A DNA stretch of 64,000 nt, taken from NCBI GenBank assembly GCA_020060565.1, contig JAGVAE010000002.1, positions 179,255 to 243,254 on the forward strand, read 5' to 3'. The notes beneath the pieces were generated by a model, which saw nothing but the letters and a program-made list of their open reading frames with translations, had not been told where the DNA came from and searched no databases. The DNA is from Candidatus Woesebacteria bacterium (lineage in GTDB: Bacteria; Patescibacteriota; Microgenomatia; UBA8517). Below, piece by piece: positions 2,700 to 35,738 of the stretch; positions within the stretch are counted from its first letter, which is position 1, and each line of letters begins with the position of its first letter. The translations under genes and the position numbers were made by a program.

Positions 2700-5024
2700 A
2701 TGAAAAAGATTGAAAAGTCCATCGATTTAGGTGGACGAACATTGACCTTAACCACTGGGGAACTCGCAGAACAAGCAGCAGGATCTGTTATGGTGCGACA
2801 TGGAGATACTGTAGTTTTAGCCACTGTCACATCCGCCCCTCTTAAAATGGAGATGGATTATTTTCCATTAACCGTTGAGTATCAAGAAAAACTTTATGCA
2901 GGGGGTCGTATTAAAGGTAGCCGCTGGGTTAAACGTGAAGGTAGGCCAACCGATGAGGAAATTCTTTCGGCCCGTCTTATTGACCGTTCAATCCGCCCAC
3001 TTTTTCCTAAAACTTACAAAATGGAAGTTCAGGTTGTTGTCACAGTTCTTTCGGTGGATCTTGTAAATGACCCCTCAATTTTAGGTGCAATTGCAGCTTC
3101 TGCTGCAATCCATGTAAGTTCTCTTCCTTGGAAAGGTCCAGTTGCTCCCCTTACAGTAGGTTTGGTTGATGGCAAATACATGGTTAACCCTGTTTCAAAA
3201 GACCTTGAGGCCAGTCAAATGGATTTAACAGTATCTGCAACCAAAGAAGCGGTTTTAATGGTTGAGGCGGGAGCGAAGGAAGTCACAGAAGAACAGATAA
3301 TTGAAGGAATTGAGCTTGCCCAAAAAGAATCAAAAGCAGTTCTTAAGTTGATTGAGGATATGGCTACTGAAGTTGGAGTTAAAAGAGAAGTATACAAAGA
3401 AGAAAAACCTTCAGCTGAACTTGAAAGCCAAGTTAGGAAATTGGTTGGAGATAAGATAGCAGGGGTTGTTGAAAGCTTGGTTCATGTTGAAAATGGAAGA
3501 TCAACCCAACTACAAGATTTAGTAGACGCAGTTACAGATCAAGTTATGGAAGCTGATGCAAAGTGGGTTTTTGAAATTATTGATCACCTTAAGAAAGATT
3601 TTATTCGTGAACAGATTCTTAAAAAAGGAATAAGACTCGATGGCAGAAAATTAACTGAAATTCGTGATCTTTCTGCAGTTGTTGGCTACTTACCCAGAGT
3701 TCACGGATCAGTATTTTTTAAACGCGGTCAAACACATGTTCTTTCTGTTGCTACATTGGGAGCAGGAAAGATGGGGCAACTTTTGGAGTCTGCAGAAGGA
3801 GAAGTTGAAAAGCACTACATGCACCAATACAACATGCCTCCTTATGCTAGTGGAGAAACAGGTAGATTTGGTAATCCTGGAAGACGTGAGATAGGTCACG
3901 GCGCACTAGCAGAACGTTCCTTAATTCCAGTTATCCCTTCTCAGGAAGATTTTCCATATGCAATCCGAGTTGTTTCAGAAGTTATGAGCTCTAACGGTTC
4001 AACCTCAATGGCTTCCGTCTGTGGATCAACACTTTCCCTGATGGATGCGGGAGTTCCCATAAAAGCTCCTGTTGCTGGAATTGCAATGGGACTAATTATT
4101 GAAGACGAAAAGAATTTTGCGGTCTTAAGTGACATTATGGGTATTGAAGACTTCAATGGAGATATGGATTTTAAAGTTGCAGGCACCGATCGCGGAATAA
4201 CTGCACTTCAACTTGATGTTAAAACCCTTAACTTAACAAGTGAAATATTGAAAAAAGCTCTTGAACAATCAAAGGAAGCACGTGCCACTGTTATGAAGGT
4301 AATTACAGATACTCTTAAAAAACCAAGAGAGGTTGTTTCACAATTTGCGCCAAAGATAAAGCTTGTAAAAATTCCAGTCGACAAAATTGGTGAGTTTATT
4401 GGTCCAGGGGGAAAGAATGTCAAAAAACTCTCAGCTGACACTGGTTGTGAATTTGACACTGCCGATGACGGATCAGTTGCAATCAGTGGAATTGATCCAG
4501 AACAAATGGCAAAAGCAGTAAGTTACGTTGAAGGATTTGCAAAAGAAGTAGTAGCGGGTGAAATCTATGATGGAGAAGTAGTACGCATTATGCCTTTTGG
4601 AGCCTTTGTAAATATTTTGCCTGGTAAAGATGGAATGGTACATGTTAGTGATATGGGTAAAGAAGAGTTTGTTGCCGACGCTAATGACGTTGTTAAAATC
4701 GGAGACAAAATAAAAGTCAGAGTAGTAAGAATTGATGACATGGGTAGAATCAATCTTTCCATGAATATGGATCCTTCAAAAGATAAACCAAAAGAAGACA
4801 GACCACCAAGAAGTGGTGGTGGGTATAGAGGTGGAGACCGTGGAGGATTTTCGTCCCAAGGACGATCGTCTTTTGGTAGGAGTGGAGGAAGAAGTTTTGA
4901 TCGGGGAAGATCTTCATTTGGGGGTGGAAGAAGTAATTTTAACAGAGATGACAGGGGAGGAAGTGGTGGCCCACACTTCCCAACTTCAAGATTGGTTAGT
5001 GAAAAGAAAGACTTTGGAAGGTAA
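2700..5024 (+). CDS. pnp: Polynucleotide phosphorylase (PNPase) with an RGG/RS-rich C-terminal tail
   Basis: 774 aa. Two RNase PH domains are present (…FFKRGQTHVLSVATLG…, …GSTSMASVCGSTLSLMDAGVPI…), then KH and S1 domains, then about 80 aa of RGG-rich low complexity. Confidence 0.95.
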   Translation: MKKIEKSIDLGGRTLTLTTGELAEQAAGSVMVRHGDTVVLATVTSAPLKMEMDYFPLTVEYQEKLYAGGRIKGSRWVKREGRPTDEEILSARLIDRSIRPLFPKTYKMEVQVVVTVLSVDLVNDPSILGAIAASAAIHVSSLPWKGPVAPLTVGLVDGKYMVNPVSKDLEASQMDLTVSATKEAVLMVEAGAKEVTEEQIIEGIELAQKESKAVLKLIEDMATEVGVKREVYKEEKPSAELESQVRKLVGDKIAGVVESLVHVENGRSTQLQDLVDAVTDQVMEADAKWVFEIIDHLKKDFIREQILKKGIRLDGRKLTEIRDLSAVVGYLPRVHGSVFFKRGQTHVLSVATLGAGKMGQLLESAEGEVEKHYMHQYNMPPYASGETGRFGNPGRREIGHGALAERSLIPVIPSQEDFPYAIRVVSEVMSSNGSTSMASVCGSTLSLMDAGVPIKAPVAGIAMGLIIEDEKNFAVLSDIMGIEDFNGDMDFKVAGTDRGITALQLDVKTLNLTSEILKKALEQSKEARATVMKVITDTLKKPREVVSQFAPKIKLVKIPVDKIGEFIGPGGKNVKKLSADTGCEFDTADDGSVAISGIDPEQMAKAVSYVEGFAKEVVAGEIYDGEVVRIMPFGAFVNILPGKDGMVHVSDMGKEEFVADANDVVKIGDKIKVRVVRIDDMGRINLSMNMDPSKDKPKEDRPPRSGGGYRGGDRGGFSSQGRSSFGRSGGRSFDRGRSSFGGGRSNFNRDDRGGSGGPHFPTSRLVSEKKDFGR

Positions 5025-7770: not shown

Positions 7771-9431
7771 TGAAAAATTCAAATGGTTTAAAGTTTATAG
7801 CACTTTCAGGAACGATTGATGTTACTGAAAATCTTTATGTCTACGAATATGGAAATGACATGATGATTGTTGATTGTGGTGTTGGGTTTCCCGATCTAGA
7901 AATGCCAGGAGTTGAATTGGTTCTACCGGACTTTTCCTACATTGTAAAAAATAAAAATAAATTAAGGGGAATTGTAGTTTCTCAGGGACACGATGATCAT
8001 GTTGGAGCCCTCCCTTTTCTTTTAAAAGAACTAAATGCTCCTATTTGGTGTACTCCTCTTGTTACAGAGTTTTTAAAAGTTAAATTTAAAGATTATAAAG
8101 TCACAAACTATAAACTAAACACATTTAATCCAGACCGTGATGTTTTTAGTGTTGGACCCTTTAATATTATTTCATTCCGTGTGACCCATTCAGTTCCTGA
8201 TACTGTGGGTTTTGCTATTGATACTCCTGAGGGAAGAGTTTTCCATGTAGCAGAACACAAGATGGACCAGACATCCGCTGATAATATGAATTTTGACATT
8301 GTCAAAGCCAAGAAATTAGCCGATGAAAAACCAGTTTTATGTCTAATGTCCGACTGCTTAGGATCAAACTCTCCAGGATTTACTCCAAGTGGACAATCAA
8401 TCGAAAACAATCTTTTTAATATTGCCAAAGATGCCTCTCAGGCAATTTATATGACTGCAATCTCCTCAAGTATCGGCAGATTTCAGCAAATGATTCGTGT
8501 AGCACAAAAGATAAATAGGAAAGTTGTACTTGTGGGGCGTTCTGTTCAAAGTAAAATTGAAATTGCCCATGACTTGGGTTATTTAAACTATCCCAATGAT
8601 CTAATAATAGATCTAAAAGAGTCACTTAATTATAATCCCAGAAAACTTGTTTATATTATTGCTGGTTGTTATGGCCAGATCGGAAGCTCTGTTTATAGAC
8701 TCGCTCTTGAGGAGCACGAGAGAGTTAAAATAAACAAAGGTGATACTTTCATATTCTCTGCAGATCCCGGCCCCGCCTACTCAAAAGAGAGTGAAGATTT
8801 TATAGTTGATAAACTGGTCGATCTTGGTGTGGATGTTCACTATTACGATTTAGGGGAAGGACTTCATGTTTCAGGACATGGTGGTCAGGAAGATATTAAG
8901 GAACTGTTTAAGATTGTAAAACCAAAATATTACATTCCTACAGGGGGAACTATTAGATATATGAAGTCGTATGAGAAATTAGCAGTTTCGGTTGGAGCAA
9001 AAGAGGAAGATGTATTTAGACTTAAACCTGGGGAAAGTGTGATTTTTGAGGATGGACAAGCAAGGCGTGGAGAAACTATTAAGACAAAAGAGGTATTGGT
9101 TCATGGATTGGGAATTGGTGATATTGGTAAGGTTGTTCTAACGGATAGAACTGCATTGGGCAAGGAAGGAGTTGTTGTTGCTGTAGTTAAAACAAACAAA
9201 CAGGGAAAAATTGTGGCAAGGCCAGAATTAACTAGTCGTGGATTTGTTTTTGAACCAGGGTATGGTGGAGTGCTTGATGAAGCCGCAATTGGTTTAGATA
9301 AAACTCTCCAAAGTAAAAAATTACAAAATAATTCTTCTATAAAAAATCTTACAAATCAATTTTTGGAAAAGTATTTCTATGACAAAACTCGCCGCCACCC
9401 CATGATTCTCCCAGTGGTTGTTGAGGTTTAA
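7770..9431 (+). CDS. rnj: Ribonuclease J (metallo-beta-lactamase/beta-CASP)
   Basis: The N-terminus is LKFIALSGTIDVTENLYVYEYGNDMMIVDCGVGFPD, followed by GHDDHVGALP (a variant HxHxDH), a beta-CASP region and a C-terminal domain; 553 aa in total. Confidence 0.85.
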   Translation: MKNSNGLKFIALSGTIDVTENLYVYEYGNDMMIVDCGVGFPDLEMPGVELVLPDFSYIVKNKNKLRGIVVSQGHDDHVGALPFLLKELNAPIWCTPLVTEFLKVKFKDYKVTNYKLNTFNPDRDVFSVGPFNIISFRVTHSVPDTVGFAIDTPEGRVFHVAEHKMDQTSADNMNFDIVKAKKLADEKPVLCLMSDCLGSNSPGFTPSGQSIENNLFNIAKDASQAIYMTAISSSIGRFQQMIRVAQKINRKVVLVGRSVQSKIEIAHDLGYLNYPNDLIIDLKESLNYNPRKLVYIIAGCYGQIGSSVYRLALEEHERVKINKGDTFIFSADPGPAYSKESEDFIVDKLVDLGVDVHYYDLGEGLHVSGHGGQEDIKELFKIVKPKYYIPTGGTIRYMKSYEKLAVSVGAKEEDVFRLKPGESVIFEDGQARRGETIKTKEVLVHGLGIGDIGKVVLTDRTALGKEGVVVAVVKTNKQGKIVARPELTSRGFVFEPGYGGVLDEAAIGLDKTLQSKKLQNNSSIKNLTNQFLEKYFYDKTRRHPMILPVVVEV

Positions 9432-12980: not shown

Positions 12981-14783
12981 ATGACTACAAAGGAGATTAG
13001 GGAAAAATATATTGAATTCTTCGTTAGTAGAGGACACAAGGAAATAACACCTTCCCCTTTGGTTTTGGAAAATGATCCTACAACACTTTTTACCTCTTCT
13101 GGAATGCAACAAATGGTCCCTTATTTTAAAGGTGAAAAACACCCAATGGGAGAAAAACTTGTTGACTCTCAACTTTCAGTAAGAATGCAAGATCTTGATG
13201 AAGTTGCTGATAATAGACATTTAAGTTCTTTTGAGATGCTTGGTAATTGGGGTTTGGGAAGTTATTTTAAAAAAGATCAACTAAACTGGATTTGGGAATT
13301 TTTTATTGAAGAAATTGGTTTTGATTCAGAGAGACTGCATGTATCACTTTTTGAAGGTAACAAAGATGTTCCCAAGGATACTGAATCTTATAAAATTTGG
13401 AGAAAAATAGGTCTTCCTGAAAATCATATACATTTTTATGATGTTAACAAAAATTGGTGGGCAAGAAACGGTGCAGTTCCATCTAATATGCCGACTGGGG
13501 AAATTGGTGGACCAGATAGCGAAATTTTTTATGAATTTGATTTTATCGAACATCGCCCCGAATTTGGTTCTTTTTGCCACCCAAACTGCGATTGCGGCAA
13601 ATTTTTGGAAATTGGAAACAGTGTTTTTATGGAATATGTAAAAAACGAAGACGGATCTTTAAGTGAATTGCCACAAAAGAACGTAGATTTTGGGGGAGGT
13701 CTAGAGAGAATTGCTGCTGCTAAAAATGACAACCCTGATGTTTTTAAAATTGATATGTTTTCTGGGATTATTAAAAGAATTGAAGAGGAAATTGGTATTA
13801 ATTACAATTCAGATCCCAAAAAAGATAGAGATTTTCGAATTATTACTGACCATCTTAGAACGTCATGTAACCTTCTTGCGGAAGGGGTAATCCCAGGAAA
13901 TAAACTTCACGGATATGCATTAAGGCGTTTAATAAGACGTGCAATGTTTCACTGTCATCTGTTGGGTTCTGGTATATCTGGTTCAGGGATATCTCACATA
14001 GCCGAAGATTTGCGTAATCACTATCCCAATGTTGATAAAAACTGGGATTTTGTTGAAGAAAATTTAAATACAGAAGCCGTAAGATTCGAATCCGCTCTAA
14101 AACGCGGTTTGGCTAATTTGACGAAAGCTGTTTCGGATGGAGTAGAAATTGACGGAAAGTTTGCGTTTGATCTTTATCAAAATGACGGATTTCCACTTGA
14201 GTTAACTCTTGAAATTCTATCCCAAAACGGTATGAATTTTACGCAAGACGAAAAGAATGCTTTTGAAGCGGAGTTTGAAAAACATAGAGAAAATTCCAGA
14301 GTTACATCAGCTGGAATTTTTAAAGGAGGTTTGGAGAATAAATCAGATGAAACTATTACAAAACTTCATACGACTACCCACCTACTTCACGCTGCACTTC
14401 GTCAGATTTTGGGAGAACATATTTCTCAAAAGGGAAGCCATATTACAGCAGAAAGACTAAGATTTGATTTTGGACATCCAGGAAAACTAACAGATGAAGA
14501 AATCAAAAATGTTGAGGATCTGATGAACTTACAAATAGAAAAGAAACTGCCTGTCACTTTCAAAACCGAAAGTTTAGACGCAGCCATTGCCAAAGGGGCC
14601 CTCCACTTCTTCGCAGACAAATATGGAAACGAAGTAAAAGTGTACAGTATTGGCAATTTTTCAAAAGAAGTTTGTGGAGGACCACACGTTGAAAACACTA
14701 AGGAGATTGAGCATGTTAGAATAATTAAGCAGGAAAAAATTGGATCCGGAGTTATCCGAATCTATGCTGGTATTGAAAAATGA
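12981..14783 (+). CDS. alaS: Alanine--tRNA ligase, short form (catalytic, tRNA-recognition and editing domains; no C-Ala domain)
   Basis: IREKYIEFFVSRGHKEITPSPLVLENDPTTLFTSSGMQQMVPYF; GGPDSEIFYEF…CHPNCDCGKFLEIGNSVFMEY; and the editing-domain HTTTHLLHAALRQILGEHISQKGSHITAERLRFDF. Only 600 aa. Confidence 0.9.
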   Translation: MTTKEIREKYIEFFVSRGHKEITPSPLVLENDPTTLFTSSGMQQMVPYFKGEKHPMGEKLVDSQLSVRMQDLDEVADNRHLSSFEMLGNWGLGSYFKKDQLNWIWEFFIEEIGFDSERLHVSLFEGNKDVPKDTESYKIWRKIGLPENHIHFYDVNKNWWARNGAVPSNMPTGEIGGPDSEIFYEFDFIEHRPEFGSFCHPNCDCGKFLEIGNSVFMEYVKNEDGSLSELPQKNVDFGGGLERIAAAKNDNPDVFKIDMFSGIIKRIEEEIGINYNSDPKKDRDFRIITDHLRTSCNLLAEGVIPGNKLHGYALRRLIRRAMFHCHLLGSGISGSGISHIAEDLRNHYPNVDKNWDFVEENLNTEAVRFESALKRGLANLTKAVSDGVEIDGKFAFDLYQNDGFPLELTLEILSQNGMNFTQDEKNAFEAEFEKHRENSRVTSAGIFKGGLENKSDETITKLHTTTHLLHAALRQILGEHISQKGSHITAERLRFDFGHPGKLTDEEIKNVEDLMNLQIEKKLPVTFKTESLDAAIAKGALHFFADKYGNEVKVYSIGNFSKEVCGGPHVENTKEIEHVRIIKQEKIGSGVIRIYAGIEK

Positions 14784-16984
14784 ACCTCAAAGATTTTTTG
14801 ACAAGTCGCGAGTCGCCACCAGAACTTTACTGGTCACTTGTTGTTGAAAAAGGTTGGGTACAGGCGGGTATTTGGTATATAAATGAGTCTTCTGCGGAAG
14901 TAATTAACATTAGCCCCAGCGCTGCTTGGGAAGTTGAGGGAGAGTTAATTGGAGCCTGTGATGCGGTACTTTCTTCTTGTGTAAGTAAACTTCCAGAAAA
15001 CTATACTGAGCCAAGTAAAACTGTTTTTGGAGTTAGTTCTTCTTGGGTGAAAGAAGGAGAAATAACCGATGAATATTTGGCAATGATTAAGACGGTCTGT
15101 ACTGATTTATCTCTAACTCCTGTAGGTTTTGTAGTTTTACCAGAGGCAATTGCTCATTTATATAAGTCGGAAGAAGGGTCTCCCTTGAGTGCGGTTGTTA
15201 TTGGATTGAGTCCTGAAGAACTGGAAATATCGGTTTTTAATTTGGGTAATCTTATTGGTACCACATCTGTTGCCAGAAGTGTTTCGATTATTGAAGATGT
15301 TACAGAAGGGTTATCTCGTTTTGAAGGAGCCTCTCCGCTTCCCTCTCGAATGATTGTTTTTGATGGTAAGGAAGGAGAGTTGGAGGAAGCGAAAGAAGAA
15401 TTAATGAAAGCCACGTGGGAAGGAAATGAAAAAATGAAATTTTTACATACCCCTAAAGCCGAGACACTTGAAAGCAGTAAAAAAGTTTTGGCTACTTGTT
15501 TAGCTGGGGCAGCTGAGATTGGAAATGTAACAGAGGTCTTTTCTAAAGAAGAACCAATAGGGGAAGAAACATATCCACCTGAGGCTGAAATTAAAAACGT
15601 GGTAGAACCCGATGAAGAAACAAGTGCAGAGAAGCTTGGATTTTCAATTAATGAAGATGTCACAAGTAATCAAAGTCCAGTTTCTGGGCATATATCATTA
15701 AACTCACCCATCACACCACCAGTTTTACCGATAGCCCAACCCCAGCAAAAAGTAAACCCCCAACATCAAAAATTTGGTGTGGGGGTAAAAAATTTATTCC
15801 ATACTTTTTCGTCGAAGTTCAAAATTGGCGGTCCAAAAATTTCTTCGCAGGGAAATAAAAAATCTTTGAAGTTAATTTTAATAATTGCAGTTGTTTTAAT
15901 TGTTGGGATTGGAGCTTATTCGTGGTTTGTTCCTAAAGCAACAATAACAATCTTTGTTGCACCGAAGCCATTTCAACAGCAGGTTAGTATTTCCTTTAAT
16001 ACGCAAGGCGTGTTTGATGAATCAAAAGCCATTCTCCCCGCACAAATTATTACTTCACAAGCATCGGGGGACAAGACAAAATCCACGACTGGTGCTAAGT
16101 TAGTTGGAGATAAAGCCACAGGAAGTGTTCAAATTGCCAATGGAAATACAAGCTCAATAAAATTAGCAACAGGAACAGTTTTAACATCAACTTCAGGACT
16201 TAAATTTATAACAAATTCTGAAGCTTCCATTTCTGGACAGTTATTACCTGGTTCCCCGGGAACTGCAACATTAGAAGTAACTGCAGGGGATATTGGTGCC
16301 CAGTACAATTTAGCAAAAGGAGAAGTGTTTAAAGTTGGAGTATTTGAAAAATCATTGGTTGCAGCAACTTCACAAACAGATTTTTCAGGAGGAAGTAGTC
16401 AACAAATTGCAGCCGTTTCTGAAGAAGATCAGGAAAATTTAGAGACTGATCTAAAATCTGAACTTTCCAGCAAGGTTATAAATGATTTGGAAAGTAAGGC
16501 AAGTGAAGATCAACTTTTTGTCGATGATTTAGCTGAATTTGAAACTACGTCGAAGAATTTTGACCACAAGGTCGGTGAAGTAGCCGAAACCCTAAAACTT
16601 ACATCGGAGATTAATGCTACTACAGTATTGGTTGATAGGGAAAAACTTCAAAACTATGTTGCAAACATTCTTAAAGATAAAATTCCACAAGGTCACGCAT
16701 TGCGCAATAACCAAATTAAATTCAAATTTACATTTATTAGTAAAGAAGGAGAAAATTATATTTACACAATCAATATAAGTGCTAATTTTTTACCCATGAC
16801 AAATTCTGAAGAGATTATTAGTAAAATATCGGGTAAAAGTGTTTCATCTGCTACTGAATTTTTATCTTCCGTACCTGGATATACTCGTGCTGAAATAGCA
16901 CTAAAGAATAAACTTCTTGGTCCATTCAAGACTCTGCCACACGTAAAAGATAATATTACAATAGAAATTGCGGCAGATCAGTGA
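14780..16984 (+). CDS. Membrane protein: a degenerate actin-like (FtsA/PilM-like) cytoplasmic domain, an acidic linker, one TM segment and a large beta-rich extracytoplasmic domain
   Basis: 734 aa. The N-terminal ~210 aa follow an ASKHA-fold pattern (…FGVSSSWV…LSLTPVGFVVLPEAIAHLY…AVVIGLSPEELEISVFNLGNLIGTTSV…). The TM segment is LKLILIIAVVLIVGIGAYSWFV. The ~350-aa ectodomain is rich in T/S/G beta-strand repeats. Confidence 0.55.
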   Translation: MNLKDFLTSRESPPELYWSLVVEKGWVQAGIWYINESSAEVINISPSAAWEVEGELIGACDAVLSSCVSKLPENYTEPSKTVFGVSSSWVKEGEITDEYLAMIKTVCTDLSLTPVGFVVLPEAIAHLYKSEEGSPLSAVVIGLSPEELEISVFNLGNLIGTTSVARSVSIIEDVTEGLSRFEGASPLPSRMIVFDGKEGELEEAKEELMKATWEGNEKMKFLHTPKAETLESSKKVLATCLAGAAEIGNVTEVFSKEEPIGEETYPPEAEIKNVVEPDEETSAEKLGFSINEDVTSNQSPVSGHISLNSPITPPVLPIAQPQQKVNPQHQKFGVGVKNLFHTFSSKFKIGGPKISSQGNKKSLKLILIIAVVLIVGIGAYSWFVPKATITIFVAPKPFQQQVSISFNTQGVFDESKAILPAQIITSQASGDKTKSTTGAKLVGDKATGSVQIANGNTSSIKLATGTVLTSTSGLKFITNSEASISGQLLPGSPGTATLEVTAGDIGAQYNLAKGEVFKVGVFEKSLVAATSQTDFSGGSSQQIAAVSEEDQENLETDLKSELSSKVINDLESKASEDQLFVDDLAEFETTSKNFDHKVGEVAETLKLTSEINATTVLVDREKLQNYVANILKDKIPQGHALRNNQIKFKFTFISKEGENYIYTINISANFLPMTNSEEIISKISGKSVSSATEFLSSVPGYTRAEIALKNKLLGPFKTLPHVKDNITIEIAADQ

Positions 16985-17655
16985 ATTTCACAATGAATCA
17001 AAAAAATATTTTACGTGTAGCAGCTTTAATTTCGGCAATTTCGGGAATTGTAATTTTGATCGGAGTAATCTATCCAATTGTTTCATACGATGAGACTTAT
17101 GGGAAAAATTTTTCAGAACTTGTTTCCCCCCTAAGTGAAAATCCAATAAATCAATCCGAAAATGACTTTACTAGAGCTAGTAATTGGTTTGTAGGCGGAG
17201 CAAAGTCGTCTGATTTTAATGCTGCAAAAGTTGAGCACTTTACAATCAGTATTCCTGCTTTAAAAATAGATCATGCAACAGTAACAATAGGAGGAGAAGA
17301 CTTAAATGAAAGCATTATTCAATATCCAGGAACAGCTCTTCCTGGTAGGCCAGGTAATACGGCAATTTTTGGACATTCAATTTTACCAATCTTCTATAAT
17401 CCCAAAAACTATATTTCCATTTTTTCACTTTTACCTACTCTTAAAAAAGATGATGAGGTTTTTATAGATTACGATGGTGTATCGTATAAATATAAAGTCG
17501 AAACCATGTTTGAAGTAATGCCAACAGATATACAAGTACTTGATCAGGATTATTCTGATTCTTTTGTGACTCTTGTAACTTGCGTACCACCAGGCCATCC
17601 CAACGATCCTAAACGTCTAATAGTTCGTGCTAGGATTGTTCCACCTACAAACTAA
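16981..17655 (+). CDS. Sortase family transpeptidase
   Basis: An N-terminal TM anchor; IFGHS (the catalytic His region); TLVTCVPPG (the TLxTC catalytic Cys motif); a conserved Arg in LIVRARI. Confidence 0.75.
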   Translation: MNFTMNQKNILRVAALISAISGIVILIGVIYPIVSYDETYGKNFSELVSPLSENPINQSENDFTRASNWFVGGAKSSDFNAAKVEHFTISIPALKIDHATVTIGGEDLNESIIQYPGTALPGRPGNTAIFGHSILPIFYNPKNYISIFSLLPTLKKDDEVFIDYDGVSYKYKVETMFEVMPTDIQVLDQDYSDSFVTLVTCVPPGHPNDPKRLIVRARIVPPTN

Positions 17656-29875: not shown

Positions 29876-29905
29876 TTGACAGGCTTATTTAGGCTCGAAT
29901 ATAAT
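29876..29905 (+). promoter_or_regulatory. Sigma70 consensus promoter upstream of tuf (TTGACA - 18 nt - TATAAT)
   Basis: TTGACA at 29876-29881 and TATAAT at 29900-29905. A second, extended -10 (TGgTATAAT) lies at 29954-29962. Confidence 0.45.
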
Positions 29906-29914
29906 ACACCTATT

Positions 29915-29941
29915 GAGGCAGAATTAAGCCTCTTGTTTTTT
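29915..29941 (+). terminator. Leader hairpin with U-tract (attenuator-like) between the tuf promoters
   Basis: GAGGC(29915-29919), loop AGAATTAA, GCCTC(29928-29932), then TTGTTTTTT. Confidence 0.4.
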
Positions 29942-29982: not shown

Positions 29983-31173
29983 ATGGCAGACGCAAAACAA
30001 CATTTTGATAGAAGTAAGCCCCATGTAAATATTGGTACTGTTGGTCACGTTGACCACGGTAAAACCACTTTAACCTCAGCTATCACTATGGTTTTAGCTA
30101 AACAGGGACTTGCAACAGCTAAAAATTATGCAGATATTGATAGTGCTCCCGAGGAAAAAGAGCGTGGAGTTACAATCAATCTTTCTCATCAAGAATACGA
30201 AACAGCCAAACGTCATTATGCTCACATTGATGCTCCAGGTCATGCTGATTACATTAAAAACATGATTACTGGTGCAGCTCAAATGGATGGAGCAATTTTG
30301 GTTGTTTCTGCCGCAGACGGTCCCATGCCTCAAACTAGAGAGCACGTAATTCTCGCCCGTCAAGTTAATGTTCCCGCAATTGTAGTTTTCCTTAACAAAT
30401 GTGACATGGTTGATGATCCCGAACTTATTGATTTAGTTGAAGCAGACGTTCGTGAGCTTCTTAAGAAATATAAATATCCTGGAGATGAAGTCCCTGTAAT
30501 TAGGGGTTCAGCTCTTAAAGCAACTGAGGGTGATGCAGAAGCTGAAAAACAGATTCAGGCTTTAATGGATGCGGTGGATAGTTACATTCCTGATCCAGTT
30601 CGCGAGACCGACAAGCCATTCTTTATGGCAGTTGAAGATGTATTTACAATTCAAGGAAGAGGAACAGTTGTTACGGGAAGAGTCGATCGTGGAGTTATCA
30701 AAGTTAACGAAGAAATTGAGATAGTAGGAATTAAAGACACTCAAAAAACAGTTGTAACAGGACTTGAGATGTTCAGAAAGACTCTTGATGAAGCTCAAGC
30801 AGGAGACAATGTTGGAGTACTATTGCGCGGAATTGAAAAAGACCAGGTTGAACGTGGACAAGTTCTTGCTAAGTCAGGCTCAATTACTCCCCATACAGAG
30901 TTTGAAGCGGAAGTATATATTCTTTCAAAAGAAGAGGGTGGAAGACATACACCATTTTTTACAGGTTACAAGCCTCAGTTTTATATAAAAACAGCGGATA
31001 TTACGGGGGAGGCAACCCTTCCAGAGGGGATTGAAATGGTCATGCCTGGAGATAATGCAAAAATGAAAGTTAAGCTAATTCAACCCGTAGCACTTGAAGA
31101 TGGTATGAGATTTGCAGTCAGAGAAGGTGGCCACACAGTTGGAGCTGGAGTTGTCACCAAAGTAATAGCTTAA
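29983..31173 (+). CDS. tuf: Elongation factor Tu
   Basis: [23 protein letters not shown]; 396 aa. Confidence 0.97.
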
Positions 31174-31196: not shown

Positions 31197-31505
31197 ATGG
31201 CAACTGGACGACTTAGAGTAAAACTCAAGAGTTATGACCATAGAGTCCTCGATGAAGCATCAGCTAAAATCATCGACACGGCTCTTGCTACAGGTGCCAA
31301 AATCATAGGTCCCATTCCTCTCCCCACATCCCGTTCCATGATGGCAGTTAAAGAATCTCCTTTTACGGACAAAGATGCCCAAGAACATTATGAAGTTTTA
31401 GTTCACAAGAGATTAATTGATATTCTAGATCCATCCCCACGTACAGTTGATTCCCTTGGGAACCTTGATCTTCCAGCTGGGGTAAGTATTGAGATCAAGA
31501 TGTAA
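31197..31505 (+). CDS. rpsJ: 30S ribosomal protein S10
   Basis: RLRVKLKSYDHRVLDEASAKII…GPIPLPT…HYEVLVHKRLIDI. Confidence 0.95.
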   Translation: MATGRLRVKLKSYDHRVLDEASAKIIDTALATGAKIIGPIPLPTSRSMMAVKESPFTDKDAQEHYEVLVHKRLIDILDPSPRTVDSLGNLDLPAGVSIEIKM

Positions 31506-31528: not shown

Positions 31529-32359
31529 ATGTCATTAGAAAACGATCAAGAACGGGTACAAAAAGCAATGGAAAAATACTCCAATTGGGAGGAACGACGA
31601 ACTGAAGTTCTTGAAGAATTAAAAGAATTTCGAAATATTAGAAGATTTTATCATTCGCAAAATAACCCAGGTGCTTATGTGACATTAAACATTTTTTTGA
31701 AAGATTCAGAAGTGCTTAAAACAGTTAGAGCTGCAGAATTGTTTCCTGATGAACCCAATCCAAGGTTTTTTGTGGCTTGGAGTGTGAGTGATGATCATAC
31801 GGATGTAAGAAAACTTGAGACAACCATTGACCCCAGTTTGGATAGGAAGGTGAGAATCTCTGGAGAAGTTATAGTTTTGAAAGATGAAACCAAATTTTTT
31901 CTCTGCGATCCGATTCAACTAAAAACTGGTGCTACGGAACTATCTACAGGGAAAAATTATCTAGAAGTATCTAATATTTTATTAGATAGGGGTTATATTC
32001 CCGTAGATGCTGAGTTTAGAATTCTTCCAATTGATAATACAAAAGATGACTTAGTAAGCCTTGGTGGGCTTGAAAAGGAATTTATTGATTTATATGGCAA
32101 TTTGAGTCTAACTGAAAGTATTATTATGTCCAAGGTAAATAGGACAAAGCTTGAAAATATAGTCCATTCACTTGTTAGAATTATTCAAAATAGTAAGAAT
32201 AGTGACGAAGTTGAGAGGGGAATTATATTTTTGGGTGACGTTTTGGCAGTTTTTCCAGGATTAAGGAAGTATTTTACGGGTCAAGAGAAAGAAAAAATGG
32301 TTCAAATAGTTAGCTCAAAAGATTTGATGGACGAGTCGGGATTGGGTGAGATAAACTAA
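31529..32359 (+). CDS. Hypothetical protein inserted after rpsJ
   Basis: 276 aa, no recognisable motifs. It is the first gene of an insertion that breaks the S10 operon. Confidence 0.5.
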   Translation: MSLENDQERVQKAMEKYSNWEERRTEVLEELKEFRNIRRFYHSQNNPGAYVTLNIFLKDSEVLKTVRAAELFPDEPNPRFFVAWSVSDDHTDVRKLETTIDPSLDRKVRISGEVIVLKDETKFFLCDPIQLKTGATELSTGKNYLEVSNILLDRGYIPVDAEFRILPIDNTKDDLVSLGGLEKEFIDLYGNLSLTESIIMSKVNRTKLENIVHSLVRIIQNSKNSDEVERGIIFLGDVLAVFPGLRKYFTGQEKEKMVQIVSSKDLMDESGLGEIN

Positions 32360-32363
32360 AGTT

Positions 32364-32909
32364 ATGTCTGTTGAAATTACATATTTCGTTCATGGAACCA
32401 CATTTGATAATGAGCAGGAAATTTCTTCTGGTTGGAAAGATGTAGACATTTCTCCAAAAGGAATAGAACAATCAATCGCCCTTAAGGATCAAGTTAAGGA
32501 TAAGAAATTTGATGTTGTATTCTGCTCTGACCTAAAACGTGCCGTACATTCGGCAAAATTGTCCTTTGAGGGAACTTATACAATTGTTCCCGATGCAAGA
32601 CTTAGGGAATGTAGTTATGGTGATTTTAATGGAAAGCCGTCAGAAGTTGTTGAATCTATGCAGGAGAGTCACGTAACTGAAAAATTTCCTAATGGCGAAA
32701 GTTATGAAGTTGTAAAGAGTAGGATAGCGGATTTTCTGGAAGATTTGAAGAAAAATTATGACGGTAAACATGTTGCAATAGTTGCCCACAAAGCTCCTCA
32801 ACTTTCGCTAGATGTGTTATTAAGAGGTAAAACATGGGAACAAGCCTTTGCAGAAGATTGGCGCAAAACCCATTCTTGGCAACCAGGATGGGAATATATT
32901 TTAAATTGA
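32364..32909 (+). CDS. Histidine phosphatase superfamily protein (phosphoglycerate-mutase-like); the first RHG motif is degenerate (VHG)
   Basis: FVHGTTFDNE where the RHGxxxxN motif is expected; SDLKRAVHSA; VAHKAPQ (the catalytic His region); 181 aa. Confidence 0.6.
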   Translation: MSVEITYFVHGTTFDNEQEISSGWKDVDISPKGIEQSIALKDQVKDKKFDVVFCSDLKRAVHSAKLSFEGTYTIVPDARLRECSYGDFNGKPSEVVESMQESHVTEKFPNGESYEVVKSRIADFLEDLKKNYDGKHVAIVAHKAPQLSLDVLLRGKTWEQAFAEDWRKTHSWQPGWEYILN

Positions 32910-33785
32910 ACTGAATTTTCTTCCTTTGACGTTTACTTTGCACCAGAGGGGGCTACTAACCACAATTGAGGCTCGCCAGAAATAGTTATAAATTGAAGCT
33001 GGTAAAATTGATTCAAAATACTTCAGGTAAGGACTTAAGGATATAGCTATGTTCCAAATAAAACTGGGAACCTTTATTTGTTTATATTTTTTTCCTTGAG
33101 CTTCAGTAAGGATCTTAAAAATCTCAGCTAAAGTCAGATTTTGGACTGCTAATGGGATAATCTGGTAAGTTTTGGGTGGTTTTTGAGAAACATTAACCAG
33201 ATATTTGGAGATATCATCGACATTGATAAGCCCTGTCTTTCCAGTCCAATTTAACCTCGAAAAGATAGAATTTGTTTTGACTAAACCTTTTAGAAAATTT
33301 AAAAAACTGTTTTTTCTGGGATTATCTCCCCAAACTGTGGGAAGCCTTAAAATTGTTAACTTAAATTTTCTATCTTTTGCAGCCTTAATTAGTATTTTTT
33401 CTGCTATTAATTTTGTATATCCATAGCCGTTATTTGGTGAGGGTTTGGTCTTTCCGTCAATAGCTTTTTTGCAGTTTTTCCTCCCCGCGTAAATTGCCAG
33501 GGAGCTGGTAAAAACAAAATGACTATTTTTATCTAATTTAAGATGTTCCAGTAGATTCTTTGTTCCAATATCATTACATCTTTGGTCAGCTTTTGAAGTA
33601 TCAGTTGCGGCTGCCAAGTGGATTACTAACCTTGGGTTTTTGGGGACTTTGGAAAGACCCTTTTTCGTAACTAAATTGTGTTTCCCCTCATTTAAAAGAA
33701 AAACTTTCTCTTTTTTATATTTATTTTTGATTAAGGGTGTAAGCTGACTTCCTATAAAACCCGTACCTCCCGTTATTAAAATCAT
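32901..33785 (-). CDS. NAD-dependent epimerase/dehydratase (extended SDR)
   Basis: MILITGGTGFIGS (a Rossmann GxxGxxG) and YGYTK (the catalytic YxxxK). It is antisense to the surrounding r-protein genes and convergent with the upstream gene, overlapping it by 9 nt. Confidence 0.8.
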   Translation of the reverse strand: MILITGGTGFIGSQLTPLIKNKYKKEKVFLLNEGKHNLVTKKGLSKVPKNPRLVIHLAAATDTSKADQRCNDIGTKNLLEHLKLDKNSHFVFTSSLAIYAGRKNCKKAIDGKTKPSPNNGYGYTKLIAEKILIKAAKDRKFKLTILRLPTVWGDNPRKNSFLNFLKGLVKTNSIFSRLNWTGKTGLINVDDISKYLVNVSQKPPKTYQIIPLAVQNLTLAEIFKILTEAQGKKYKQIKVPSFIWNIAISLSPYLKYFESILPASIYNYFWRASIVVSSPLWCKVNVKGRKFSSI

Positions 33786-33805
33786 AAGGGTATAATAGCG
33801 CTTGT

Positions 33806-34789
33806 ATGTGGAAACATAAATGGTTAATTATATCTCTAGTTTTGGCCGTATTTTTGATCATTTTTAGGTTTAATCACGGAGTTATCCAACAGGATAATTA
33901 TGTGGGATATGCCAGAACTTTTCCCTTTTCTGTAGGTAGTATAGATTTTTTTGAATCCCGACTTCTTCCAGGGCTTCCTATTTTAATTTATTTATTTAGC
34001 TGGTTGACCCAAAATCTTTATGTCTCAGGGTATTTAATTACTCTTCTTTCTTTTGTTGGTTCCTATTTCTTACTTTATAAAATCACTGGCTCACGTTTTA
34101 GTGTTTTGCCTTTGGTTTTTCCTCCAATTCTTCTTTCCCTATCAACTCTAATTGATACCGAATTTCCCTTCATTTTTTTGGCTCTTCTTGGCTACTACCT
34201 GATAAGGAAGGAGAAAATGGCTTTGGCATTTCTTGTAATAGGGCTATCTGTTTGGTTTAGGTTGGCAGGCTTAGCTTTGATTTTTGCTGTTTTTATATAC
34301 TTTTTGGTTCAAAAGAAGTTTACCAAGTTTTTTATTTACCTGCCTTATTTTACCCTTCCGATGGTTTTCCTTATGGCTTATAACGCCTACTTTTTTGGGT
34401 CTAGCGATCTTTTTTATCAGCTTACTACTTATGAGGCACTTCACCCTGGAAGGATTAATATTGGAGTAGTCCAATTGGGGTTGGATTTAGTTAGGGCAAT
34501 AAGGTGGCATTGGTACAGGATCTTTGTGTCAGGTCTTTTCTATGTGATCTTTTTTGTGGTTCTTTGGGTAAAATCCATTAAGCCCAAGGCTCTTGAGTTT
34601 TGGCTGATAACAGGCATTTATCTTTTTACACTAACAGTTAATTTAGTGCCATTTTTGGAGAATTTGGGCAGGTACTTGGCTCCAACTATTCCATTTTTCT
34701 GGATAATGTACTACGGTAAGTTTAAAAAGAGGGGGTTAGTATTTTTGCCTTTTACCCTTCTTGTATCATCCTTGGTAGTTCTAATTTGA
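33806..34789 (+). CDS. Polytopic membrane protein; candidate GT-C-type glycosyltransferase or polymerase
   Basis: 327 aa with about 9-10 hydrophobic helices and aromatic/Pro-rich loops. No soluble domain is present. Confidence 0.5.
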   Translation: MWKHKWLIISLVLAVFLIIFRFNHGVIQQDNYVGYARTFPFSVGSIDFFESRLLPGLPILIYLFSWLTQNLYVSGYLITLLSFVGSYFLLYKITGSRFSVLPLVFPPILLSLSTLIDTEFPFIFLALLGYYLIRKEKMALAFLVIGLSVWFRLAGLALIFAVFIYFLVQKKFTKFFIYLPYFTLPMVFLMAYNAYFFGSSDLFYQLTTYEALHPGRINIGVVQLGLDLVRAIRWHWYRIFVSGLFYVIFFVVLWVKSIKPKALEFWLITGIYLFTLTVNLVPFLENLGRYLAPTIPFFWIMYYGKFKKRGLVFLPFTLLVSSLVVLI

Positions 34790-34973
34790 GCAGGCTTGCC
34801 AAGAGATTAGCCTTCTGGTATAATGTCCCCATTACAATATGGTGGTCATGAATAACATCAGCCACGGTAAGTTAGCTTCTTAAGGGGCTCCAAAAGCGCC
34901 TTTTAGGGGGCGCTTAAGTTGTTTAATGGCGGGTGAAGAACAGGTGGTTCTATCACTTCGCTCCAAAACAAAA

Positions 34974-35738
34974 ATGATAAATACAATTTTAGGTTCAAAA
35001 GGAAGTGTTTCCCAGACCTTCGTGCAAGGCTTTAAAGTGCCTGTCACTAAGGTTACCGCTGGGCCCTGTGTCGTGACTGCCATTAAGAATGAAACCCGTG
35101 ATGGTTATTGGGCAATTCAAATTGGTTATTCAGTTAAAAAACTCAAAAATACCTCAAAACCTCTTCAAGGACACCTCAAAGCTACTATAAAAGAAGACAA
35201 AGCCCCAAGATTTTTAAGAGAGATTAAAGTTAAAAAAGAGCCAGAAGTTAAAGTCGGAGACACAATATCAACCTCCGACATTTTTCATGCTGGAGATATA
35301 GTTTCAGTAACTGGAGTTTCAAAGGGTAAAGGTTTTGCTGGAGGAGTTAAAAGATGGGGATTTCATGGAGGACCTCGTACTCATGGTCAGAGTGATCGTG
35401 AGCGTGCTCCAGGATCAATTGGACAAACAACAACTCCAGGTAGAGTCTATAAAGGCAAAAAGATGGCGGGAAGAATGGGAGGGGAACAAGTTACTATTAA
35501 GAATCTTCACGTAATTTCAATCAACCCTGAGACAAATGAAATGGAAATATCAGGACAGATTCCAGGAACCCCAGGGGGTCTTATCACAATCAAGAAAATT
35601 AAATCAGGCAGTTTGAAAGAATTGGAACATGAAGTGGTAGCTCAAGTTGTTGAGGGAGAAGCTCCAACTGGGGAAGCAGAAGGAGAAAAGAAGGAAGAGA
35701 CAGCTCAAGTACCAGAAGGAGGAACACCAAATGCTTAA
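34974..35738 (+). CDS. rplC: 50S ribosomal protein L3 with an acidic C-terminal tail
   Basis: GSKGSVSQTF…GVSKGKGFAGGVKRWGFHGGPRTHGQSDRERAPGSIGQ…. The start ATG at 34974 is more likely than the track start at 34926. The C-terminus is EAEGEKKEETAQVPEGG. Confidence 0.9.
   Translation: MINTILGSKGSVSQTFVQGFKVPVTKVTAGPCVVTAIKNETRDGYWAIQIGYSVKKLKNTSKPLQGHLKATIKEDKAPRFLREIKVKKEPEVKVGDTISTSDIFHAGDIVSVTGVSKGKGFAGGVKRWGFHGGPRTHGQSDRERAPGSIGQTTTPGRVYKGKKMAGRMGGEQVTIKNLHVISINPETNEMEISGQIPGTPGGLITIKKIKSGSLKELEHEVVAQVVEGEAPTGEAEGEKKEETAQVPEGGTPNA

Follow-up and report, generated by a model that had tools for sequence, protein, structure and literature searches.

The neighborhood of rpsJ and rplC, the genes for ribosomal proteins S10 and L3, ranks among the most conserved bacterial gene orders, and the block of 16 ribosomal proteins used as a marker for placing uncultured lineages builds on this order. 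We analyzed 64,000 nucleotides of a Candidatus Woesebacteria genome (contig JAGVAE010000002.1, positions 179,255 to 243,254; the window, here and below) in which four extra genes lie between rpsJ and rplC (Table 1). They encode a 276-residue protein (ORF276), a histidine phosphatase, a minus-strand epimerase of the extended short-chain dehydrogenase/reductase (SDR) type, and a polytopic membrane protein. A preliminary description of this DNA had reported the four genes as an insertion inside the S10 operon. Its coordinates match our map of open reading frames (ORFs), profile searches confirm S10 and L3 at the flanks, and its calls of a histidine phosphatase, a minus-strand NAD-dependent SDR and a GT-C-like polytopic protein are correct, as are the motifs that it quoted (VHG at residues 9-11 of the phosphatase, and GGTGFIGS and YGYTK in the epimerase). 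Successive spacings from rpsJ are 23, 4, -9 and 20 nt, followed by 6 nt to the rplC promoter, and the base composition of the four genes falls inside the range of other genes in the window, with no anomaly. After rplC come L4 (rplD), L23 (rplW), L2 (rplB), S19 and the remaining operon genes.

Table 1. Features of the rpsJ-rplC region. Coordinates are those of the window unless a related locus is named; promoter elements are predicted.
Feature	Position	Strand	Basis or remark
tuf promoter, sigma-70-type	29876..29905	+	TTGACA-18-TATAAT, 12/12 hexamer matches
tuf (EF-Tu)	29983..31173	+	ORF map; 91-99% identity to tuf of related loci
rpsJ (S10)	31197..31505	+	Ribosomal_S10 8.6e-29; PRK00596 1.7e-37; left border of the islet
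ORF276, 276 aa	31529..32359	+	ORF map; no Pfam or NCBIfam match
Histidine phosphatase superfamily branch 1, 181 aa	32364..32909	+	Pfam His_Phos_1 1.1e-30
Extended-SDR NAD-dependent epimerase/dehydratase/reductase, 294 aa	32901..33785	-	Pfam Epimerase 2.8e-21, RmlD_sub_bind 2.1e-14
TATAAT, candidate -10 element of the membrane gene	33791..33796	+	invariant in 8/8 aligned relatives
Polytopic membrane protein, GT-C fold, 327 aa	33806..34789	+	AlphaFold2 (AF2) model, Foldseek; Pfam/NCBIfam matches sub-threshold
rplC operon promoter	34796..34824	+	TTGCCA-17-TATAAT with TG extension (TGgTATAAT), 11/12 hexamer matches; right border of the islet
rplC leader, 149 nt	34825..34973	+	conservation, minimum-free-energy (MFE) folds, covariation, covariance model
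P1 hairpin	34838-34869	+	MFE fold
Antiterminator 5' strand	34875-34888	+	can pair with loop and 3' arm of the terminator hairpin
GC-rich terminator hairpin	34894-34915	+	found in window sequence, fold
P3 hairpin	~34928-34962	+	fold, covariation
rplC (L3)	34974..35738 (ORF from 34926)	+	L3_bact 2.6e-66
rpsJ-tail segments in relatives	L092:3925-4052, L094:4818-4970, L105:2624-2751, L119:772-885, L137:962-1115, L163:3288-3372, L175:3465-3532

The distance between rpsJ and rplC depends on where rplC starts. The alignment to the L3_bact model begins at residue 21 of the ORF at 34926-35738, and the start MINTILG (MINTILGSKG in the window) is kept in all relatives. An N-terminal extension of 16 codons from the ATG at 34926 was considered and rejected, as in L011, L015 and L098 it either contains stops or lies in another frame. 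Because the model and the relatives start at the downstream ATG and the extension is broken in these loci, rplC probably starts at 34974, and the spacer from the rpsJ stop to this ATG therefore measures 3,468 bp. We compared this value with an S10 scan of species-representative genomes, to which an L3 metagenome scan added 80 loci. The expectation that the two genes are normally adjacent was borne out for genomes outside the candidate phyla radiation (CPR), where the gap is 12-82 bp (Thermotogota, Clostridia, Melainabacteria, Actinomycetota and similar groups). In the sampled CPR genomes it ranges from 117 to 4,915 bp and is often 0.6-4.9 kb; in Microgenomates, which together with Woesebacteria are the nearest named relatives in the S10 scan, it is never below 117 bp and reaches ~3,636 bp.

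The cargo in the window fills exactly the interval from the rpsJ stop codon to the predicted rplC promoter. The motif TTGCnn-N17-TGnTATAAT stands at the same position 5' of rplC in all 15 of the first relatives, and in 77 distinct leaders. Every Microgenomates relative examined has this promoter and then a leader of ~100-155 nt, irrespective of the cargo. On the other side, 23 nt without a terminator separate tuf from rpsJ, and the predicted consensus promoter before tuf is likely the start of a tuf-rpsJ transcription unit. The classical S10 arrangement, with rpsJ directly before rplC and a promoter and leader 5' of rpsJ, is not found in the window. Since rplC is served by a conserved promoter and leader of its own, rpsJ would act as the tail of the tuf unit, and we infer that the junction is an operon boundary with cargo between two transcription units and not within one. 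The claim that the genes are inserted inside the S10 operon is thus only partly right, because the rplC promoter and leader are conserved 3' of the cargo and also at empty sites. A better frame for the locus than a cassette embedded in the S10 operon is an islet of variable content at an operon boundary specific to the lineage.

The tuf promoter lies between fusA and tuf, and a short GC hairpin (29915-29932) and a T-run (TTGTTTTTTG) follow it on the 3' side. Thus tuf, too, may be preceded by a leader of the attenuator type; alternatively, transcription of fusA may end at a terminator located 3' of the tuf promoter.

The rplC leader folds into a P1 hairpin, an antiterminator strand, a GC-rich terminator hairpin and P3, and an A-rich stretch without a Shine-Dalgarno sequence precedes the ATG. 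In most relatives the terminator reads GGCGCC-loop-GGCGCC and then U6, a canonical intrinsic terminator. Among 25 aligned sequences, which are related to one another, the antiterminator helix is 88.3% paired (81.7 +/- 1.3 in shuffles) and shows 23 double-sided changes (8.3 in shuffles), and neither value was reached by any of 500 shuffles. Pairing in slid controls is 39-63%, and the mean stability advantage of cognate over non-cognate antiterminator duplexes is 2.2 kcal/mol. Pairing at the P3 base reaches 96.9% versus 67.8 when shuffled (0/500; slid controls 23-65%), with a covariation of 0.74 versus 0.18 and compensatory changes in four of its five base pairs. P3 and the antiterminator together constitute a conserved, covariation-supported structured RNA in the 5' untranslated region of a ribosomal protein operon. 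A covariance model of it, R1, found 44 matches in 1.8 Mb, all on the coding (+) strand, one per locus and directly 5' of rplC, ending at the ATG or a few tens of bases past it. There was no further R1 match elsewhere in the 64-kb window and no credible match of the leader in Rfam 15, also when the isolated leader was searched with E-values up to 10 allowed. By analogy with L4 control through the Escherichia coli S10 leader, ribosomal protein-dependent attenuation would be the likeliest mechanism.

Other sequence features accompany rplC leaders. A conserved CCAAAAC(A/C)AAA (34964-34973 in the window) precedes the rplC ATG in place of a Shine-Dalgarno sequence, and in more distant relatives GGAGGUG, the complement of the anti-Shine-Dalgarno sequence, is contained in the P1 hairpin, close to the leader's 5' end. 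Loci of the Moraniibacteria type, on the Parcubacteria side (L056, L059, L068, L072, L077 and L080), have a different conserved motif ~60-150 nt 5' of rplC (GTTYAAGTCC ... GGATACTNRGCGA ... CCAG, then a T-run), and a further motif is common to the Saccharibacteria loci L055 and L073. Across CPR, rplC seems generally to be preceded by leaders with terminator-like ends, of kinds that differ by lineage.

What lies at the junction varies among close relatives. We tabulated the cargo of about 25 loci whose S10 is at least 89% identical to that of the window, adding L094 at 86%. The junction is empty in L098, L108, L109 and L143. It holds the membrane gene only in L093 and L094, epimerase and membrane gene in L091, L099, L110/L112 and L011, these two with a GT87 gene in L092 and L103, and epimerase with GT87 in L104 and L111. 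The phosphatase stands with epimerase and membrane gene in L001/L116 and L113, with the membrane gene in L130, with orf74 in L115 and after orf196 in L095; L120 has orf74 only, and L012, L100 and L105 have unrelated ORFs. The closest relative by both S10 (98%) and L3 (88%) is L098, where the rpsJ stop is followed by 24 nt and then the same rplC promoter. The insertion thus has no fixed form across the lineage, and the four genes, which differ in their distribution among relatives, do not behave as the single unit that had been described. In L093, S10 is 98% and L3 83% identical to the window, and the membrane protein only 42%; these discordant identities suggest exchange rather than pure vertical decay.

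Judged by motifs, junction cargo in other Microgenomates includes a TlyA-like methyltransferase, a peptide deformylase, a Fic protein, a zeta-like P-loop protein and a racemase with RidA. Three junctions carry cargo that, going by its motifs, appears selfish: a 415-aa P-loop (zeta-toxin-like) protein with two paralogous ORFs of ~113 aa in L105 (3782-5029, minus strand), a Fic-domain protein with the motif HPFxDGNGR in L166 (1314-2285), and a small antitoxin-like ORF in L158 (2874-3146).

The membrane gene is the most persistent occupant of the junction, as judged from sequence comparison. Its product has 84 homologues, all unannotated and none with Pfam domains; the four that we looked up, at 80, 62, 42 and 37% identity, are all encoded between rpsJ and rplC, and identities at the junction range from 37 to 84%. 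The AF2 model is all helical and confident (pLDDT 88.8, pTM 0.90), and the top 23 Foldseek matches in the PDB are all GT-C enzymes (ArnT, PimE, AglB/STT3, ALG3/6/9/12, PIG-M, EmbA/B/C and AftA), with probabilities of ~1 for the first 19 and 0.4-0.9 for the last four, and E-values of only 0.01-1.4. D30, in the motif QQDNY directly after the first transmembrane helix (residues 2-23), is invariant in 43 aligned sequences, and the positive-inside N-terminus would place it in the first extracytoplasmic loop. The protein thus combines the transmembrane fold with the conserved acidic residue in that loop, as GT-C enzymes do. The choice of family that had been left to be made among PMT, ArnT, Wzy and DUF2029 went to none by profile: there is no PMT, ArnT, GT87 or EpsG membership. 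EpsG matches are sub-threshold in 11 of the 43 family members (best 1.5e-5, below gathering), NCBIfam AZOBR_p60025 scores 32.9 bits against a cut-off of 150, and hhalign to the neighboring GT87 gives a probability of 19%. No good -35 element accompanies the conserved TATAAT before the gene.

Wherever the epimerase gene occurs, it lies on the minus strand. In the window it overlaps the convergent phosphatase gene by 9 bp, and a spacer of 20 nt (20-33 nt overall) separates its start from that of the divergent membrane gene, with no convincing or conserved promoter candidate for the epimerase. It is an extended SDR by its PF01370 score (76.5 bits), TGGTGFIGS at residues 5-13 and YGYTK. Among solved structures it comes nearest to RmlD-type reductases and GalE/MoeE5 epimerases, with no E-value better than 7e-8, and no specific enzyme (GalE, RmlD, heptose epimerase or others) could be assigned, the best NCBIfam equivalog scoring 52.6 bits against a cut-off of 274.6. 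Epimerase and membrane gene form a recurring divergent pair in at least 11 loci, joined in some relatives by a GT87 glycosyltransferase. By fold, family and neighborhood this pair would fit a surface-glycan module, and to that extent the suggestion of a sugar-modification cassette stands; it does not extend to the phosphatase and ORF276, which are distributed separately.

The phosphatase scores 107.2 bits against PF00300 (cut-off 21.7) and falls below every NCBIfam equivalog cut-off. In place of RHG it has V9-H10-G11, with V9 aligned to the arginine of CobC IRHGET in the PDB alignment; the catalytic histidine, second arginine, glutamate and distal histidine are present as H10, R59, E82 and H142. 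There are 5,630 homologues, 72-88% identical among the best 120, and V9, H10, R59, E82, H142 and the motif FVHGTT are invariant in the 15 of these matches that were aligned. The motif had been called degenerate; with VHG invariant in this sample and the other catalytic residues intact, the sequences indicate a subfamily trait and not decay. In Parcubacteria the gene adjoins those for dCMP deaminase and a NUDIX protein, far from rpsJ, and the phosphatase is, on the sequence comparison, a CPR-wide housekeeping-like gene that occurs in other contexts too. Across Microgenomates, Parcubacteria and Pacebacteria the homologues P0125-P0243 are 72-88% identical to it, more conserved than S10 between the same groups (~55-60%), which therefore points to very strong constraint or frequent transfer within CPR.

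For ORF276, a word-based search found only ORF276 itself at the level of sequence clusters, and exact look-ups matched no contig. Exhaustive HMMER searches found 34 relatives of ~165 aa that cover residues 10-170. The protein thus belongs, by this N-domain, to a small family that is itself uncharacterized; the domain is modelled confidently and has no solved structural relative, and the C-terminal helical extension (~170-276) has no relatives. A homologue, P0093, lies at the junction of L177 in the order rpsJ-orf184-phosphatase-P0093-rplC and adjoins a phosphatase again on a second contig, which hints that the two families are linked.

We consider the best explanation, with a probability of about 0.72, to be a split operon whose inter-operon spacer is a hot spot for composite, layered cargo. 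In Woesebacteria-like Microgenomates, the classical S10 operon would be divided in two: rpsJ would close the set of ribosomal genes in the tuf unit, and a separate strong promoter and a structured leader of ~150 nt would open the rplC-rplD-rplW-rplB... operon. In the leader, the intrinsic-terminator hairpin would compete with the upstream antiterminator strand, and P3 would precede the A-rich, Shine-Dalgarno-less start region. Because the operon would be split, the few bases from the rpsJ stop to the -35 element would constitute an inter-operon spacer, which would have become a hot spot of cargo gain, loss and exchange. The window's cargo is composite, and nested arrangements in relatives suggest that it was acquired in layers. 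The rplC-proximal and most persistent layer would be the divergent epimerase/membrane-gene pair, in which the GT-C protein is predicted to glycosylate a cell-surface acceptor, using a polyprenyl-phosphate-linked sugar as donor, and the antisense SDR epimerase/reductase would supply the modified sugar. The rpsJ-proximal layers would be the CPR-wide histidine phosphatase and then the genome-specific ORF276 next to rpsJ.

Several points weigh against this explanation. Every promoter and transcript end, like the attenuator, is predicted from sequence. In the window and its nearest relatives, other bases break up the U-tract 3' of the terminator hairpin (GCGCTTAAGTTGTTTAA), and intrinsic termination may therefore be weak in the window leader. 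Much of the antiterminator pairing is carried by a conserved core, non-cognate duplexes being only ~2 kcal/mol worse, and the relatedness of the sampled leaders inflates the shuffle-based covariation statistics. The membrane protein reached no curated family (PMT, ArnT/PMT_2, GT87/DUF2029, EpsG and others), and there is no donor-forming GT2 or flippase among the scanned window ORFs. Finally, we found no convincing terminator for a tuf-rpsJ-ORF276-phosphatase unit, and because there is none in between, its transcript probably runs antisense into the epimerase. The preliminary description had concluded that S10-operon transcription must either terminate or read antisense through the epimerase; this dilemma largely disappears for the rplC operon, which has its own promoter, and persists as the likely antisense overlap of the phosphatase transcript with the epimerase. 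A hairpin at 32869-32892 was rejected as the terminator of that unit: it is present in all phosphatase genes, whatever their neighbors, because the codons of the invariant SWQPGW are inherently palindromic.

The alternative that survives best, which we nevertheless regard as unlikely, is a site-specific integration hot spot, in which the rpsJ 3' end would be an attachment site for cassettes inserted by a recombinase acting in trans. Known attachment sites of this kind are rlmH for SCCmec and attI for integron cassettes. In at least eight related loci (L022, L092, L094, L105, L119, L137/L138, L163 and L175), the last five to eight rpsJ codons and the stop are present in two or three direct copies. 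Orphan copies in L092, L094, L105, L119, L163 and L175 encode an identical peptide, with six to eight synonymous and no non-synonymous differences, and so differ from the real rpsJ end at most synonymous sites; the orphan copy in L137/L138 has two conservative substitutions. In L163, copies at 3346-3372 and 4647-4667, identical at 20 of 21 nt, bracket a 406-aa ORF (3427-4647), and in L022 a repeat identical at 17 of 17 nt (8295-8311 and 8588-8604) brackets inserted DNA; from their sequences, these two cases look like cassette insertion at an att-like site. The window's most lineage-specific gene is also the one nearest rpsJ, and the series membrane gene, plus epimerase, plus phosphatase, plus ORF276 is nested and grows at the rpsJ side.

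Against integration, the window contains no second rpsJ 3' end, allowing up to 3 mismatches in 21 nt, and its cargo is flanked by no direct or inverted repeats beyond chance. Pfam and NCBIfam identify no integrase among the four window ORFs, and there is none in the junction cargoes whose ORFs were examined; the window thus lacks both the recombinase gene and the flanking direct repeats of an integrase-borne genomic island. Additions are not strictly one-sided, because GT87 and orf74 sit at the rplC side, and the repeats in most loci bracket only a structured segment of 41-126 nt and not cargo. We therefore state only as a hypothesis, given no recombinase and no scars in the window, that the rpsJ 3' end may be a recombination target resembling the att-site duplication at rlmH for SCCmec.

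The bracketed segment is an observation in its own right. In the related loci listed in the last row of Table 1, a conserved, GC-rich structured segment of 41-126 nt lies directly 3' of rpsJ and is followed by the orphan copy (last eight codons and stop); it has an outer GCCCC/GGGGC helix and a GAAUA-loop hairpin whose stem covaries. In six loci, the conserved structured element spans 87-126 nt from the real rpsJ end to the orphan copy that comes first; it has no match in Rfam. Candidate identities are an integration scar, a small mobile element or an intron-like RNA.

Selection for co-expression would provide another explanation for a membrane gene at this site: the GT-C gene would be kept after tuf-rpsJ so that read-through from this very strong unit ties glycosylation of the envelope to how fast the cell grows. 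The family does stay at the junction down to 37% identity, and in L093 its gene starts 35 nt after rpsJ. We think this explanation improbable, given that the gene is absent in the close relatives L098, L108, L109, L143 and L095, that the TATAAT before it is conserved even in the simplest arrangements, and that the epimerase, where present, is an antisense gene between rpsJ and the membrane gene.

Slightly less probable still is the model put forward earlier, namely one four-gene envelope sugar cassette inside a single S10 transcription unit that is read through or terminates within it. Phosphatases acting on sugar phosphates are known from glycan pathways, the epimerase and GT-C genes are found together in at least 11 loci, sometimes with GT87, and the phosphatase accompanies the pair in L001 and L113. 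Yet the phosphatase lacks glycan genes beside it in L095, L115 and L177 and is remote from rpsJ in Parcubacteria, the glycan genes lack the phosphatase in L091, L099, L103 and others, and the promoter and leader of rplC are conserved regardless of cargo.

An assembly chimera, a 3.4-kb block mis-joined into the ribosomal cluster, had been named as what would overturn the finding and is scarcely credible: only the ORF276 junctions (31505/31529 and 32359/32364) are confined to this genome, whereas those of rpsJ/phosphatase, phosphatase/epimerase, epimerase/membrane gene and membrane gene/rplC leader recur in independent assemblies, the order rpsJ-phosphatase-epimerase(-)-membrane gene-orf74-rplC, without ORF276, is present on at least 24 contigs from several studies, different samples and assemblers, with subsets of it on many others (phosphatases of the 24 or more contigs belong to the window's 90%-identity cluster and are ~85% identical by tblastn), the ORF276 homologue of L177 adjoins the phosphatase between rpsJ and rplC, and the tight gene spacings fit a native arrangement.

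The split-operon explanation can be extended to the combined claim that the rplC leader is an undescribed class of ribosomal protein-responsive attenuator and that the rpsJ 3' end is a sequential cassette attachment site. We put this forward tentatively, with the odds somewhat against it. If true, the leader would correspond in function to the S10 leader of E. coli, moved to rplC and confined to Microgenomates, perhaps with analogues across CPR, and the most conserved gene junction of bacteria would be a cassette-capture site in Microgenomates. Our literature search turned up no account of an rplC leader in CPR and none of insertions between rpsJ and rplC. Ribosomal protein regulation in the reduced genomes of Microgenomates would have to be modelled differently, and the leader offers a testable new RNA element. 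The junction could serve as a natural permissive site for gene insertion once these organisms are tractable. The islet points to strain-level variation in surface glycosylation, which is likely relevant to host attachment and phage resistance. Elsewhere in the window, a 734-aa ORF (14780-16984) has only a weak Baseplate_J-like match (E 1.9e-4), and a sortase gene (16981-17655) comes next, overlapping it by 4 bp; the two are possibly a sortase substrate/surface-protein pair.

Several known systems invite comparison. The window's phosphatase shares with branch 1 histidine phosphatases (CobC, PhoE/GpmB and PspA) the His_Phos_1 match and the catalytic histidine, second arginine, glutamate and distal histidine; unlike them, it has valine for the first arginine of RHG, throughout the sampled subfamily. 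The best structural matches of the membrane protein are ArnT (GT83; 5f15, E 0.011, TMq 0.57) and PimE (GT87; 9dm5). It differs from these enzymes in having only 327 aa, no soluble domain and 12-13% identity, and it resembles them in the invariant aspartate of the first extracytoplasmic loop and in context, its gene adjoining a true PF09594 GT87 gene in relatives.

The E. coli S10 leader mediates autogenous control by L4, which combines NusA-dependent attenuation with translational repression. The E. coli leader precedes rpsJ, whereas that of the window precedes rplC and leaves rpsJ outside the unit; the two have no sequence or Rfam similarity, and the window leader, unlike that of E. coli, has an explicit antiterminator strand that covaries with the terminator loop. 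In archaea, the S10 gene adjoins that for EF-1alpha. Both bacterial RNAs are structured, terminator-hairpin leaders before an operon for L3, L4, L23 and L2 (for the distribution, see PMC3616713), and both offer a plausible feedback site for a ribosomal protein encoded in the operon, protein binding being putative in the window. A survey of ribosomal leaders describes a candidate L4 leader before rplC only for Archaeoglobi and lists none for Patescibacteria or Microgenomates (Eckert and Weinberg 2020, PMC7247131). The archaeal RNA belongs to another domain of life and is unrelated to the window leader; it shares with it the position 5' of rplC-rplD-rplW-rplB, in an operon that begins at rplC (PMC7247131).

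The islet as a whole is best compared with O-antigen clusters (galF-gnd) and SCCmec (rlmH). It departs from these in that its flanks are ribosomal protein genes, its cargo is tiny (0-5 genes), no recombinase was identified and the window has no repeats. In common with them, it has strongly conserved genes on both sides of variable cargo, glycan-related or other, shows presence/absence and allelic replacement among close relatives and, in some relatives, has direct repeats of a gene 3' end bracketing the inserts.

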